DNA of 64,000 nt from Escherichia phage vB_Eco_NR1: sequence record LR990704. One strand, written 5' to 3'. The notes below the pieces were generated by a model that saw only the letters and a list, made by a program, of their open reading frames with translations, was not told the origin of the DNA and did no database searches. Below, piece by piece: positions 3,172-12,682 of this stretch. The number at the start of each line of letters is the position of its first letter. Position 1 is the first letter of the stretch. Made by a program: the position numbers and the translations under genes.

Positions 3172-4759
<1,588 letters not shown>

Positions 4760-4786
4760 AATAAAATGGGCCTTGCGGCCCACTCC

Positions 4787-5965
4787 TTAAAAGTATTTTT
4801 TAAAACTCATCATAACTTTATCATCAACATCATTATCAATCTGTGCAACAAGGTAAGATGACAGTTCTACTTCTTGTGGCGCGGATTGAACATTATCAGA
4901 ATTAAGATATTCACGAATCCAAGGATATGGATGTTTAACCGGAGCATCGGTAATCGGGCATGGAAGACCACACTGTTTCATACGAGATACAGTTAAGTAA
5001 TCAATAAAGCTCCACATGCTATTTGTATTTAATCCAGGAACATCGCCATCTTTAAATAAATGAACTGCCCAATCTTTTTCTTGGCGGTTAACTTCCATGA
5101 AAATATCAACTGCTTCTTGTTCACACTCTTGAGCAATTTTAACCCATTGATCGCCATCAGTACCAGATTGAAGTTGACGAATAATATATTGGGTGCCTTT
5201 AAGGTGAAGCTGTTCATCGCGTGCAATGAACTTCATAATCTTGGCATTACCTTCCATGATTTCCATGTTCTTATGGAAGTTAAAGGTACATGCGAAAGAT
5301 ACATAAAAACGAATAGCTTCCAATGCGTTAATTACATGCAAACAGAGGTAAAGAGATTTCATTAGCTCACGCTTCCAATATGTCTCATGCTCAATAGCAT
5401 CTTCAATAACGTCTTCGTCTGCATTAATTTCTTTTTGGTATTCGATATCAGCTTTAGCGTTTTCCCAATAACGAGTTTTAATCAGAACATCATCATAATA
5501 ACGTCCAATGGATTCAGCACGTTTCATAATAGCTTCATCTAATACAATTTCATCAAATACCTTCGATGGATCAGTATAAAGATTTCGCATGATATGTGTA
5601 TATGAACGGCTGTGAATAGTTTCACTAAAAGTCCATGTAGCAACCCATGTATCAAGGCTTGGGTCTGAAATTAATGACATAAGTACAGCAGATGGCGCAC
5701 GACCCTGAATGCTATCCAAAAGTGATTGATACTTCAGGTTATTAGTAAAAATATTTTGCTGATACTGAGGAAGCTTGTTAAATTGTGCAGCATCCATCAT
5801 TAAGTTTACTTCTTCAGGACGCCAGAAAAATGACAATTGCTTTTCGGTTAAATCTTCAAAAACTTTATGGCGTTGAATATCATAACGCGCAATACCAAGA
5901 CCTGAACCGAAGAACATAGGTTCTTTTAAAACATCAACTGGATTTGTATTAAAAACTGTAGACAT
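4787..5965 (-). CDS. nrdB: ribonucleotide reductase class Ia small (beta) subunit
   Basis: 392 aa continuous ORF; di-iron R2 fold motifs; no intron or I-TevIII-like ORF interrupts it. Confidence 0.95.
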   Translation of the reverse strand: MSTVFNTNPVDVLKEPMFFGSGLGIARYDIQRHKVFEDLTEKQLSFFWRPEEVNLMMDAAQFNKLPQYQQNIFTNNLKYQSLLDSIQGRAPSAVLMSLISDPSLDTWVATWTFSETIHSRSYTHIMRNLYTDPSKVFDEIVLDEAIMKRAESIGRYYDDVLIKTRYWENAKADIEYQKEINADEDVIEDAIEHETYWKRELMKSLYLCLHVINALEAIRFYVSFACTFNFHKNMEIMEGNAKIMKFIARDEQLHLKGTQYIIRQLQSGTDGDQWVKIAQECEQEAVDIFMEVNRQEKDWAVHLFKDGDVPGLNTNSMWSFIDYLTVSRMKQCGLPCPITDAPVKHPYPWIREYLNSDNVQSAPQEVELSSYLVAQIDNDVDDKVMMSFKKYF

Positions 5966-5999: not shown

Positions 6000-6791
6000 T
6001 CACATATTGTGTATAAGCACTTCGGTCTGAAATGATGCACCCTTCTTTTGCTTCCTATACATGGTTTCAAAATATTCAATTTTGAAATTATTAGAAAGGG
6101 CCCAATCTTTTAAAATATAATTATTAATATCGTCTGATAGATTATTAGTGATAATAAATTTAGACTTCGATTGTTTAATTTTGTCTAATAATTCTAATTC
6201 ATCCTTTTCTTCCCAGCCTGAATATTTAAATTTAGTAGAAAGATACGGCGGGTCAATGAATAAATTTTTGTTTTCAAAATCCAAATCTCTGAATGATTTA
6301 TTACTAAATGTAAATCGGTGCTGTCTATTTTTAAATTCAGAAAATTTATCCTGCTGAGACTTATTAAAAGAAGTTCTGGAATACTTGGCTCTATTGGCGA
6401 AAGCCGCGTTATAATTCCCATTACTAGAAAATCGGATTAACGAACTGAATGAAAATAAATGTAGAACATAAAGATATAATCCGTTTTTGGTTTTATCGTA
6501 TTCTTTTGACAGATTATAAAAAGGTGCTGAATCTTTGTCATTCAAATTAAAATCTTCAATAATTTTAACTATATCATTAATTGAAGATGATTTCATCTTT
6601 TTATACATGTCTATAAGAGGAGTATTAATATCATTACATATAACATCTCTCTGACAATTCATAGAAAATCCAAGACCACCACAAAAAGCATCCAAAACAG
6701 GCTTATCGTCAAAGCGGTTTGAAAATTGTCTAATAAATGGCATATACTTATGTTTTGCACCTGGATATGTTATGGCAGGTAGGTCTTTCAT
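6000..6791 (-). CDS. DNA N6-adenine methyltransferase, Dam family (divergent)
   Basis: 263 aa; motif I DAFCGGLGF and catalytic motif IV FIDPPYL in alpha-class order; N-terminal YPGAK and segment YVLHLFSFSSLIRFS resemble T4 Dam; very AT-rich coding sequence. Confidence 0.8.
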   Translation of the reverse strand: MKDLPAITYPGAKHKYMPFIRQFSNRFDDKPVLDAFCGGLGFSMNCQRDVICNDINTPLIDMYKKMKSSSINDIVKIIEDFNLNDKDSAPFYNLSKEYDKTKNGLYLYVLHLFSFSSLIRFSSNGNYNAAFANRAKYSRTSFNKSQQDKFSEFKNRQHRFTFSNKSFRDLDFENKNLFIDPPYLSTKFKYSGWEEKDELELLDKIKQSKSKFIITNNLSDDINNYILKDWALSNNFKIEYFETMYRKQKKGASFQTEVLIHNM

Positions 6792-6834: not shown

Positions 6835-9099
6835 TCATAATTTACAGGATGAACAATCTTCAGCTTTTGGAGTTTCTATTTCATAATCATCAGTACCAGA
6901 ACCATCACGGGTATTATGATAATAGAAATTTTTTCCGCCAAAATACCAAAAGTACAAAAGGTCATCAATCATTACAGACATTGGAACCTTTCCTTTTGGA
7001 AAAATCTGCGGGTCATAATATGTATTTGCTGAAGCTGATTGACATACCCATTTAAGCATAATAGCTACCTGCGTAAGATAAGGTTTATTACCTTTCTTAG
7101 CTAATTTCCATGTATAATCATAGAGGTCTATGTTATGCTCAATATTGGGCACGACTTGATTAAAGGAGCCCTCTTTTGATTCTTTAACAGAGACTGGTCC
7201 ACGTGGAGGCTCGATACCGTTTGTACTGTTAGAAACTTGGGAAGATGACTCACATGGCATAAGTGCTGATAATGTGCTATTACGGATGCCAAAGAGCTTA
7301 AGGTCTTCCCGCAGCGACGACCAGTCACAAACGTATTTTGGAGCTGCGATTTGGTCAATCTTTTTATTGTACCAGTCGATAGGTAATTCGCCTCGAGACC
7401 AACGAGTGTCTGAATAATATTCGCAAGGTCCTTTTTCTTTGGCGAGCTTAATGGATGCTTTAATGAGTCCATACTGTAATCTCTCAAATAGTTCATGTGT
7501 TAAATCGTTAGCATCTTCATAAGAAGCAAAGTTACTTGCCAGCCAAGCTGCATAGTTAGTAACACCTACACCGAGGTTACGACGCTTTTTAGCTTTTTCT
7601 GCTTCAGGAACTGGATATCCTTGGTAATCCAAAAGATTATCAAGAGCACGAACTTGGACTTCTGCCAATTCATTAATTTTATCTTGGTCTTGCCAGTCAA
7701 AATTATCCAGTACGAATGCAGATAACGTACACAATCCAATTTCAGCATCAGGACTATTCACATCATTTGTTGGAATAGCAATTTCACAACACAAGTTACT
7801 CTGACGAATAGGTGCCTTTTCACGAATAAACGGAGTATAGTTATTCGTATTATCAATGAACTGTACATAAATCCTTGCTGTTCCTGAACGTTCAGTCATG
7901 AGCAATTCAAATAGTTCACGGGCTTTAATACGCTTTTTACGAATATTAGGGTCTTTTTCTGCTGCTTCGTATAATTCACGGAAACGGTCTTGGTCTTTAA
8001 AATAAGAATAATAAAGCTCTCCACCCATTTCATGTGGACTGAACAAAGTAATGTAATCGTTCTTTCCAAATCGTTCCATCATCAAATCATTCAGCTGAAC
8101 GCCATAATCCATATGACGAATGCGGTTTTCTTCTACGCCTTTGTTATTTTTCAAAACGAGAAGATTTTCAACTTCCAAATGCCAAATAGGATAATAAGCA
8201 GTAGCAGCGCCGCCACGAATTCCACCCTGTGAACATGATTTAACTGCAGTCTGAAAATGTTTCCAAAAAGGAATAACACCAGTATGACGTACTTCACCCA
8301 TGCCAATCTTAGAACCTTCAGCACGAATCATACCAACATTAATACCAATTCCAGCGCGTTTAGAGATATATTCAACAATTGAAGCGGAAGCCTTATTGAT
8401 AGACTTCAATGAATCACCTGCCTCAATAACAACACATGAACTAAACTGTCGAGTTGGAGTACGGCAACCAGCCATAATAGGAGTTGGCAATGAAATCTGT
8501 CGAGTAGATACTGCTTCATAAAAACGGATAACATGTTTTAATCTATCAACAGGTTCATCTTGATGCAGTGCCATTCCAATAGTCATAAATGCAAACTGCG
8601 GAGTTTCATAAATTTGACCAGTGGTTTTATCTTTAACTAGATATTTTTCTTTTAATTGCATCGCACCGGAATAAGTAAATTCCATATCCCGCTCGTGCTT
8701 AATTTTTGATTCTAAAAATGTAATTTCTTCTGCTGAATATTTTGACAATAATTCAGGGTCATATTTACCTGCATTTACACAGTAAGAAATATGGTCAATA
8801 AATGAACGCGGTTCATACTGCCCGTAAACATGCTTACGAAGAGCAAACATTAAACAGCGTGCAGCTACATATTGATAATCAGGCTCTTCAACCGAAATAG
8901 AATTCGCAGCAGCCTTAATTACAATAGTTTGAATGTCATCAGTGGTCATTCCATCACGGAGATATGATTTAATATTTTCATATAATTCATAAGGATCTAC
9001 AGATGTTCCTTCAGCTGCCCAAGATAAAACTTTAATAATTTTTTGTGGGTCAAAGCTCTGAGAAACACCACTACTTTTGATAACATTAATTAATTGCAT
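6835..9099 (-). CDS. nrdA: ribonucleotide reductase class Ia large (alpha) subunit
   Basis: 754 aa (T4 NrdA 754 aa); ATP-cone N-terminus, catalytic NxCxE (SNLCCEI) and C-terminal CSSCKL tail. Confidence 0.97.
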   Translation of the reverse strand: MQLINVIKSSGVSQSFDPQKIIKVLSWAAEGTSVDPYELYENIKSYLRDGMTTDDIQTIVIKAAANSISVEEPDYQYVAARCLMFALRKHVYGQYEPRSFIDHISYCVNAGKYDPELLSKYSAEEITFLESKIKHERDMEFTYSGAMQLKEKYLVKDKTTGQIYETPQFAFMTIGMALHQDEPVDRLKHVIRFYEAVSTRQISLPTPIMAGCRTPTRQFSSCVVIEAGDSLKSINKASASIVEYISKRAGIGINVGMIRAEGSKIGMGEVRHTGVIPFWKHFQTAVKSCSQGGIRGGAATAYYPIWHLEVENLLVLKNNKGVEENRIRHMDYGVQLNDLMMERFGKNDYITLFSPHEMGGELYYSYFKDQDRFRELYEAAEKDPNIRKKRIKARELFELLMTERSGTARIYVQFIDNTNNYTPFIREKAPIRQSNLCCEIAIPTNDVNSPDAEIGLCTLSAFVLDNFDWQDQDKINELAEVQVRALDNLLDYQGYPVPEAEKAKKRRNLGVGVTNYAAWLASNFASYEDANDLTHELFERLQYGLIKASIKLAKEKGPCEYYSDTRWSRGELPIDWYNKKIDQIAAPKYVCDWSSLREDLKLFGIRNSTLSALMPCESSSQVSNSTNGIEPPRGPVSVKESKEGSFNQVVPNIEHNIDLYDYTWKLAKKGNKPYLTQVAIMLKWVCQSASANTYYDPQIFPKGKVPMSVMIDDLLYFWYFGGKNFYYHNTRDGSGTDDYEIETPKAEDCSSCKL

Positions 9100-9416
9100 A
9101 AGTCCTCAACTTGAAAATCGTCTTTAAACAATCGGTTAACTATATGAGCTATTATATCACCATGACACGGCTTTGGTTTACATGTGCATCCTAGCCTCAT
9201 TCCACGTAAAGGCTCTAAATGTGCTTTAGTTATTTCTCCGGATTTAATTCGACGTATAAAATCTTTTTTGAATAATTCAATGGCAGCCTCCCGGCTGCCA
9301 GCATCTTTACCGACGTAATTTCCCCAAAATGTACCACGGTGAATATTAACATCAAAGTCGGATTTGTATTTATTCACTACCCGGCATAGACGGCCCACGC
9401 TGGAATAATTCGTCAT
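9090..9416 (-). CDS. DUF4326-like protein (108 aa); start uncertain
   Basis: motifs RVVN..KSDFDV..IHRG, WGN, and [13 protein letters not shown] resemble the DUF4326 family; ATG at 9416 lies 47 nt inside upstream ORF, GTG alternatives exist. Confidence 0.6.
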
Positions 9417-9633
9417 ATTGTTTTTCCGTTAAAACAGTAATATCGTAGTAACAGTCAGAAGAAGTTTTAACTGTGGAAATTTTATTATCAAAATACTCAC
9501 GAGTCATTTTATGAGTATAATATTTTTTACCATAAATGATAATAGGCTGTTCTGGTCCTGGAACTTCTAACTCGCTTGGGTTAGGAAGTGTAAAAAGAAC
9601 AACGCCAGAAGTATCTTTAAATCGTAAAATCAT
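9370..9633 (-). CDS. hypothetical protein (87 aa), translationally coupled to td
   Basis: start ATG overlaps td stop as ATGA (aaa atg gca atATGAttttacg). Confidence 0.6.
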
Positions 9634-10490
9634 ATTGCCATTTTCCCTTTAATTGCTGGATGCGATTCATAATTTTCAAGGATAAAATCTTTCGGTTTCA
9701 TGTATTCAGTTAACCAGTAAAGCTGTGTTTCGGTGTCACAATTTCCAAACTCTATAGGCCAATCAATTTTAAGTTCACATAGTTCTTTAGGCTCACGACG
9801 TAAAATTTCTTTACATTGCTCAGTATGATTCATATAGATGTGAGTATTACCACCAGAAAATATCAAATCTCCTGGGATAAGATTACACATCTTAGCCACA
9901 ATATGCGTCAAGGCAGCGTACGAGGCAATGTTGAATGGCAATCCCAAGAAAACATCTACACTTCTTTGGTACCATTGTAAATCAAGATAACCATTACGCA
10001 CATTAAACTGATAGAACATATGACAGGGCGGTAATGCCATTTGATTGATTTCAGCTGGATTCCATGCTGAAACGATTTGACGTCGATCAGTTGGTAATTT
10101 TTTAATACGATCAATAGTTTCAACTAATTGATCCACACCACCGAAATCACGCCATTGTTTACCGTATATAGGACCAAGTTCACCACTATGATATCCTAGG
10201 TCTTTAGCCTGGTTTTCATAGTTATCGTCCCAAATAGTTTTGCCTTGAATAAGACTACCATGAGTGCGAAGACGTAAATCATTAACATTGGTAGAACCGG
10301 AAATAAACCATAAAAGCTCAGCAATGCATGCATTCCAGGCGAGCTTCTTAGTTGTTACTGCAGGAAAACCTTTACTTAAATCCCAGCGTAATTTAGTACC
10401 GAACAAAGCAATTGTTCCTGTGCCCGTTCGGTCATCGGTTTCATAGCCATTTTCAAAAATGTCTTTAATTAAATCTTGGTATTGTTTCAT
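9630..10490 (-). CDS. td: thymidylate synthase (intron-free)
   Basis: 286 aa continuous ORF; ThyA motifs (catalytic PPCH in [11 protein letters not shown]); matches recalled T4 Td exon-joined length. Confidence 0.97.
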
Positions 10491-10535
10491 TTAGTACCTT
10501 ATATAAATTATAATACATTTTATGAAGCTAAATAA

Positions 10536-10883
10536 TCAATACGGTTTAGCATCAAATTTTCTCTCAATTTCAGGCGTGAAATATAATTCTTTACCGCGTT
10601 TGGAAAAGCGACCAATAATATGATAATTATTCTCATCAAACGTGATATTACCAATATCCATAGCTTTCAACCAAATATCGATATTTCTATCCAACTTTAT
10701 GTCAAAATTCCAATACGGAGAACTATTACCGAAAATACTGCAAGCGGATTCAGTAAAACAACTACTATAAATCTTGTCTTTAGGAACTACTAATTGATAA
10801 ACGCCTTTAATAAACTGAGGACCCTGCCACTTTGGCTGTTTCTCATCTTTTTCTAATAGAATAGGGTAATAATTAAAATTCAT
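10536..10883 (-). CDS. hypothetical protein (115 aa) inserted between frd and td
   Basis: ORF track; fills the 412-bp frd-td interval; weak SD GGCGGAAAT upstream. Confidence 0.6.
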   Translation of the reverse strand: MNFNYYPILLEKDEKQPKWQGPQFIKGVYQLVVPKDKIYSSCFTESACSIFGNSSPYWNFDIKLDRNIDIWLKAMDIGNITFDENNYHIIGRFSKRGKELYFTPEIERKFDAKPY

Positions 10884-10902
10884 ATTTCCGCCACGCGTTA
10901 TT

Positions 10903-11729
<827 letters not shown>

Positions 11730-11994: not shown

Positions 11995-12045
11995 AGTTGA
12001 TAAGGCTATAGTATCATTACCATAGCCCGTTGTAAACAATTATTT
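11995..12045 (-). promoter_or_regulatory. early promoter
   Basis: GTTTAC -35 and TGGTAATGATACTATA -10 region on minus strand. Confidence 0.5.
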
Positions 12046-12300
12046 TTGAATTTTATCGAGCCACTTACCAAGCTTAATCATTTCTTTAGTAGCCTTTTCC
12101 ATACTTCTGAACTTGACCAATAGAGGATAGGTATCGACACCCATAACTAAACTGGTTACAAGACTGTGTTCACCCACAAGCCATAACGAATACGTTTGAA
12201 TATCGAGCCCGTAATTTCTGTCTTTATGGACCCGTACACCCATCACTTCAAATTTCTCACTAGCTTTTTCTACCGCATCCAGGAAATCATCTTTAGTCAT
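12040..12300 (-). CDS. hypothetical protein (about 86 aa)
   Basis: ORF track 12040..12342; internal ATG 12300 (MTKDDF) abuts stop of upstream ORF and has AAGG SD. Confidence 0.55.
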   Translation of the reverse strand: MTKDDFLDAVEKASEKFEVMGVRVHKDRNYGLDIQTYSLWLVGEHSLVTSLVMGVDTYPLLVKFRSMEKATKEMIKLGKWLDKIQK

Positions 12301-12301
12301 A

Positions 12302-12682
12302 TTAGGCCTTAAAAGTTTTTCGCAAAAGTTCAATGATTTCATCTACATTGTTTTCATCTACAATGCAGTGAATTTTTGTTACGCCAGAAACCTTGTCTTT
12401 GACTTCATCTTCTTCAGAAGTCGGTTCTTTATACTCACGAAAACAATGAAATTCATCTTCGCAAATTTCTAAAAGTCTATCTTTGAGGTAAAAATGCTTT
12501 CCATTTGCGCATTCAATGTGTTTTACTGCTTTATATCCATTAGCGACGGAAACTTCTTTAACTTCAAACCATCCGCCATTATCTCGAATAGCTTTAACGA
12601 TTGATGAATTAGAACGTGGGCTATAATTAATAAATGTATCAATAAGTCTTGGAACAAGTTCATACTTTTTACCGGTATACAT
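12302..12682 (-). CDS. hypothetical protein (126 aa)
   Basis: ORF track; Cys/His-containing acidic protein. Confidence 0.6.
   Translation of the reverse strand: MYTGKKYELVPRLIDTFINYSPRSNSSIVKAIRDNGGWFEVKEVSVANGYKAVKHIECANGKHFYLKDRLLEICEDEFHCFREYKEPTSEEDEVKDKVSGVTKIHCIVDENNVDEIIELLRKTFKA

Follow-up and report, generated by a model that had tools for sequence, protein, structure and literature searches.

A conserved gene between frd and td of T4-like phages that is probably ancestral and was probably lost from T4

The window analysed here is a 64,000-nucleotide stretch of Escherichia phage vB_Eco_NR1 (LR990704), and all genes around frd and td within it read from the minus strand. Thymidylate synthase (td, 286 aa, 9630-10490) was recognised from the ORF list and Pfam, with a PF00303 match over residues 2-286 (E 4.7e-96), and is free of a group I intron. 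Dihydrofolate reductase (frd, 193 aa counted from MIKLVF, 10903-11484) matched PF00186 in Pfam (E 8.7e-19) and has the same extent as the frd annotated in slur07. As the initial annotation had described, an interval of 412 bp (10491-10902) containing a 115-aa ORF separates the two genes. It comprises a 45-bp spacer beside td (10491-10535) with the td ribosome-binding site (AAGG) and a promoter-like segment, the ORF itself (10536-10883, minus strand, 348 bp including the stop codon), and a 19-bp spacer beside frd (10884-10902), delimited by sequence and by alignment with Mosigvirus. We refer to the ORF as gene X; it belongs to phrog_1928 and to an orphan Straboviridae family with a predicted small beta-barrel fold. 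The sequence and the T4 alignment revealed a 9-bp direct repeat, TAAATGAAA, on either side of X, with the left copy across the frd stop codon (10901-10909, minus strand) and the right copy across the td start codon (10485-10493, minus strand).

Beyond td lie a DUF5496 ORF resembling nrdA.2 (9370-9633), a DUF4326 ORF resembling nrdA.1 (9090-9416) and nrdA (6835-9099), all on the minus strand. Farther upstream of frd are the 81-aa ORF, frd.1 (DUF5417), a 100-aa ORF, FRD2, FRD3 and gene 32. The region shows 98% identity to that of Escherichia phage slur07, hundreds of further Tequatrovirus genomes match it as well, and on these matches the phage is a Tequatrovirus.

Several other sites in this neighbourhood also vary. 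The 81-aa ORF (11484-11729, minus strand) abuts the frd start and has no Pfam match; it is present in slur07, T2, HY03 and EcNP1 and absent from T4, where frd.1 directly adjoins frd; its site is another T4-specific loss or a variable slot. The 100-aa ORF (12040-12342, minus strand), between the DUF5417 (frd.1) and FRD2 genes, likewise has no Pfam match, and the slot between frd.1 and FRD2 varies among the Tequatrovirus records inspected. Between nrdA and nrdB the window encodes a D12-class N6-adenine DNA methyltransferase of 263 aa (6000-6791, minus strand; PF02086, E 5.5e-24).

The homology search of the 115-aa protein matched phrog_1928 at E 3.1e-36, aligning residues 4-111 with positions 2-125 of the 126-position profile. 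This was the sole library match, as Pfam, NCBIfam, PADLOC and PDB sequences gave none for X or for the 71 family members. A family profile built here recovered X at E 8.5e-24 and identified no paralogue elsewhere in the window, where the next best ORF scored E 0.05. An exhaustive profile search found 51 family proteins among 1.84 billion representatives, nearly all of them standalone and 95-150 aa long. From an alignment of 71 divergent sequences, the conserved positions are W19, G27-x-Y29, G91-R-F-x-K-x-G97 and F102, all of which are present in the window protein. The invariant residues (Trp, Gly, Tyr, Phe and one Lys) do not, from their identity, form a catalytic-looking set, and the family is mildly basic with a median pI of 8.6.

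Comparison of X with its copies in T2, KMB39, ECML-123-2, Pu-Krd-SF1 and one Mosigvirus phage gave pN/pS values of 0.01-0.11, with pS reaching 0.48; judged by these ratios, X is under strong purifying selection. A reading of the 115-aa ORF as a frame left open by chance in AT-rich spacer DNA could draw on its small size and its missing annotation in some records, and on nothing more. It is refuted by the pN/pS values, by motifs kept over the 71 divergent sequences and by a confident structure model, and we consider it practically out of the question. In Pu-Krd-SF1 (L024) a 2-nt insertion shifts the X frame, which is unannotated there and is a pseudogene unless the insertion is a sequencing error; the phages concerned have the td intron alongside X.

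The AlphaFold model of X, computed from the 71-sequence alignment, reached a pLDDT of 90.2 and a pTM of 0.84. Its elements run b1-b2-(two short strands)-b3-helix-b4-b5, and its structural matches are weak and OB-fold-like. An earlier model from 28 sequences (pLDDT 75.7) returned the same weak list. The model suggests a small barrel protein for X, non-catalytic and possibly OB-like.

In T4 the frd and td genes overlap, as had been noted: RefSeq places frd at 145109-145690 and the td start at 145112, so that 4 bp (ATGA) are shared, and with that overlap nothing, including the ORF, can lie between the T4 genes. The contrast of the window with T4 (a 412-bp interval against a 4-bp overlap) is therefore real. 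The accompanying implication that the window is the odd one did not survive a survey of other phages. A tblastn search with X matched 563 phage records, 362 of them at >90% identity and 226 at >=99%, and the proteins of the last group (99-100% identical) were already on deposit. A 43-nt probe that can seed only on an intact T4-type junction detected 32 records against the roughly 362 that bear X at >90% identity. These 32 represent T4 laboratory strains and about 12 relatives, namely RB55, RB59, vB_EcoM_112, HY03, SG1, G28, F1, FN, JEP6, FL12, FL18 and G2133. A third state occurs in about 135 Tequatrovirus records such as EcNP1, in which a 68-aa ORF unrelated to X, here called Z, lies between frd and td (>=95% identity), overlapping frd by ATGA and abutting td. 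Z occupies positions 2029-2235 of the locus from Escherichia phage EcNP1 (L010) and also 4670-4879 of a second locus (L013), and it has relatives of 43% identity in Phapecoctavirus genomes. Junction counts in IMG/VR gave 0, 2 and 0 matches, its Tequatrovirus contigs being too few to be useful. Among the GenBank phage records, the window junction is thus the majority Tequatrovirus arrangement and that of T4 the rare one.

Homologues of X also lie directly 3' of frd well outside this genus. They were observed there in Kanagawavirus (Entb_45, PEi20), Jiaodavirus (KpV477), Moonvirus (Merlin, KM16), Gelderlandvirus (UTK0003) and, at 93% identity, in Mosigvirus AlbertHofmann, as well as in Gualtarvirus (Providencia phage PSTRCR_127), which falls outside Tevenvirinae. 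The most divergent family members, from metagenomic contigs, are likewise directly 3' of frd. At the 12 distinct loci examined from other lineages, as in the window, X directly follows frd and precedes td, giving the same position in at least 7 genera, and in the related lineages the stop codon of frd and the start codon of the X homologue usually overlap. The two closest non-Tequatrovirus relatives (63-66% identity) carry another gene after frd-X, and in the longer of these two contigs a complete frd-X-Y-Z-td array is present in which every frame overlaps. By hhalign, Y is related to X as a tandem paralogue (probability 97.8%, E 1e-12), and several lineages carry Y and the 68-aa Z in addition to X. 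The Z of EcNP1-type Tequatroviruses is 81% identical to the Z of this metagenomic array.

Furthermore, percentage identities to the window for X and Td were 63/82, 44/80, 36/76, 34/74, 33/71 and 16/60, with 26/32 in PSTRCR_127, the most distant phage. Across most of the loci compared, X identity drops with Td identity, the pattern expected of co-inheritance. Synteny 3' of frd, the paralogy of Y, the shared Z and this identity trend together indicate that the array is ancestral and that lineages differ in how much of it they lost; they do not suggest that this phage gained an insertion. The X family, as far as it can be traced by sequence, is an orphan family restricted to Straboviridae; it includes Y in tandem and stays attached to the 3' end of frd. 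We conclude from the comparative data that the ORF-bearing arrangement is ancestral across Straboviridae and that T4 carries a derived deletion. An unusual insertion in the window is not supported, and that framing was backwards.

The spacers differ between genera. In AlbertHofmann (L021:231-711) a 2-nt indel causes frd to run through the homologue of the 19-bp spacer and to overlap X by 11 nt, hence the frd-X spacer of the window is homologous to frd coding sequence in Mosigvirus. The X-td spacer of AlbertHofmann measures 13 nt only, and the 32 bp with the promoter-like motif are absent from it.

Pairwise alignment with the T4 junction indicated how the gene may have been removed. Read along its coding strand, the window has GTATA TAAATGAAA TAACGCG at the frd stop and AAGGTAC TAAATGAAA CAATACC at the td start, with the two repeat copies 416 bp apart. 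T4 reads GTATA TAAATGAAA CAATACC, with no intervening DNA and exactly one repeat copy. A 60-nt T4 junction query stretches over 476 bp in X-type phages, so the DNA missing from T4 amounts to 416 bp, the same as the distance between the repeats. Both flanks of this query are 100% identical to X-type phages; in Z-type phages only the frd side is matched (94.9%). Most likely, from this junction, T4 descends from an X-type genome through deletion between the repeats. The repeat alone would fit an insertion with target duplication too, as such an event leaves the same repeat behind, hence the polarity rests on the comparative data and not on the repeat. Insertion is disfavoured by the deep synteny and by the left repeat copy, which is already present in Mosigvirus, there inside the frd coding sequence. 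The repeat may exist merely because T4 gene starts commonly read AAATGAAA.

The form of insertion that has to be weighed is a recently arrived mobile gene, in which X would be a free-standing homing endonuclease spread into the frd/td junction in a subset of T-even phages. X is indeed present or absent among close relatives between conserved genes, as is typical of SegG and MobE in T4, the 9-bp repeat could be a target duplication, and four BASEL-collection records (MZ501066, MZ501089, MZ501047, MZ501050) label X a 'putative homing endonuclease'. The protein, however, has no nuclease domain, catalytic motif or fold of the GIY-YIG, HNH, LAGLIDADG or PD-(D/E)XK type, and its distribution is not sporadic, given the divergence that broadly tracks Td and the constant position across genera. 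We dropped this identity and regard the label as unsupported; that X is a recent mobile arrival is very improbable. Our preferred explanation, in which we have considerable confidence, is that X is a real and conserved gene of most T4-like phages at this position, and that T4 deleted it.

The initial annotation had also proposed that td has its own promoter-like signal, and the elements it named are present on the minus strand of the X-td spacer, in the context TTGA TTATTTAGCTTCATAAAATGTATTATAATTTATATAAGGTACTAA ATG. A pattern search confined the candidate middle promoter segment to 10505-10529 (minus strand), using the consensus and spacing of the published account (PMC2988021). There, the MotA box is given as (a/t)(a/t)(a/t)TGCTTtA, centred near -30, single changes in it are tolerated by MotA, and middle promoters need an excellent -10 element 12 +/- 1 bp from the box (PMC2988021). 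In the window, a MotA-box-like AGCTTCA (10529-10523) belongs to TTTAGCTTCA, which has one mismatch to the consensus, at the T of TGCTT, and a perfect TATAAT (10512-10507) lies downstream of it. The distance between them is 10 bp, however, and thus outside the published spacing (PMC2988021), and at 12 bp from the box stands TAATTT (10510-10505), a poor -10 element. A transcript starting 7 nt past TATAAT would have a leader of just some 10 nt, whose 5' end would fall at the ribosome-binding site.

Sequence conservation in the spacer was similarly two-sided. Over five Tequatrovirus copies, 1 of 45 spacer positions varied against 24 of 115 third-codon positions of X (Fisher p = 0.003), and the motif-bearing 32-bp segment is an indel relative to Mosigvirus, both of which would suit a functional element. 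The 3' flank of frd and the 5' flank of td are equally invariant in the same five copies, and a 54-nt spacer query found 63% of records at >=99% identity compared with 55% for a 54-nt coding control. The window holds 5 occurrences of the relaxed MotA/-10 pattern where 2.26 are expected by chance, a number that 10 of 100 shuffles also reached, and a scan of the window for sigma-70 promoters and terminators detected nothing above chance. Neither spacer contained significant RNA structure (z-scores -0.93 and +1.63). That the spacer is a promoter cassette, repeated or mobile, was likewise rejected, since it occurs once in the window, once per genome and nowhere but at this locus. The signal is therefore present with its spacing off and at a frequency no higher than chance; a td promoter is possible but unproven from the sequence, and would be compatible with an ancestral X. 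That the spacer holds its own MotA-dependent middle promoter, from which td would be transcribed apart from frd in X-type phages, we consider rather doubtful.

With regard to what X does, a literature search for a frd-td intergenic gene or the X ORF found nothing, and our proposal builds on position, selection and the predicted fold. X would be produced from an early/middle polycistronic message common to frd and td. Its product would fold into a beta-barrel of about 100 residues, whose strands 3 and 4 are connected by a helix in an OB-like topology, and would probably act through binding of a partner, protein or nucleic acid, and not through catalysis. It would be useful enough to be held under strong purifying selection, yet dispensable, as whole clades lack X and at least one phage has it frameshifted. 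That X is produced along with DHFR and works by binding, its function being inferred, is a tentative suggestion that we would not put at even chances. The window X is separated from frd by a 19-bp gap and is not translationally coupled to it, hence an argument from frd-X coupling holds for the relatives only. T4-like phages generally keep the synteny of small uncharacterised ORFs well, so the position of X alone is no proof of a functional tie to frd or td.

Many small early T4 genes similar to X are of the host-takeover or counter-defence type. X could be such an accessory protein, unconnected in function with folate or thymidylate metabolism and standing beside frd only by inherited gene order, and we consider this a possibility of some weight though short of probable. 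Its loss from whole clades, the frameshift in at least Pu-Krd-SF1, and its being a small orphan family limited to Straboviridae are all consistent with an accessory role. X has no PADLOC or other defence-system match, however, and it stays directly after frd, usually with overlapping codons, even where the genes intervening between X and td vary. This constancy is greater than that of most accessory genes and therefore counts against such a role.

A more specific suggestion, which we regard as improbable, is that X and Y serve the phage thymidylate cycle as adaptor subunits without catalytic activity, small beta-barrels made with DHFR. They could bridge DHFR and thymidylate synthase, similar to the junction segment of bifunctional DHFR-TS enzymes, or alternatively tether the two enzymes to DNA or gp32 in the dNTP-synthesising complex. 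The only grounds for this are the binder-like predicted fold and a synteny tied to frd, in which stop and start codons overlap, that is kept across Straboviridae. If it were true, T4 would be the exceptional phage that manages without X and Y.

For the window phage itself X matters little, since hundreds of deposited phage genomes already list it as a hypothetical protein and the window is ordinary in this respect. What is added here is the tandem paralogue Y in the family, the anchoring to the 3' end of frd throughout Straboviridae, and the loss in T4. The textbook frd/td overlap of T4 would accordingly be a lineage-specific deletion scar and not the typical T-even arrangement, which makes T4 a poor reference for this locus. 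Frd anchoring and strong purifying selection make the X/Y family a reasonable candidate for an accessory factor of phage nucleotide metabolism, and T2, with X, and T4, without it, offer a ready-made natural comparison.

The phrog_1928 protein between frd and td of T2, RB3, RB18, RB51 (RB32ORF229c), slur07 and others is the same gene as X. The T4 junction has frd 3' and td 5' flanks near-identical to those of the window (97 of 99 aligned frd-side positions), and differs in its single copy of TAAATGAAA where the window has two around X. Through its weak structural matches, X may be compared with OB-fold nucleic-acid-binding domains such as those of SSB, RPA, Teb1, HIN, S1 and the MCM N-terminal domain. 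T4 td is split by the I-TevI intron, whereas td in the window is intact; both td and nrdB (4787-5965, minus strand) are uninterrupted, hence the window phage is without the td and nrdB group I introns of T4 and without I-TevI and I-TevIII. Between nrdA and nrdB, T4 carries mobE and nrdB.1 where the window has the D12-class methyltransferase. The segA-G and mobA-E genes of T-even phages resemble X in being present or absent between conserved genes among close relatives, but X is half their usual size, has no GIY-YIG or HNH motif or fold, and is orthologous and syntenic across genera and not sporadic.
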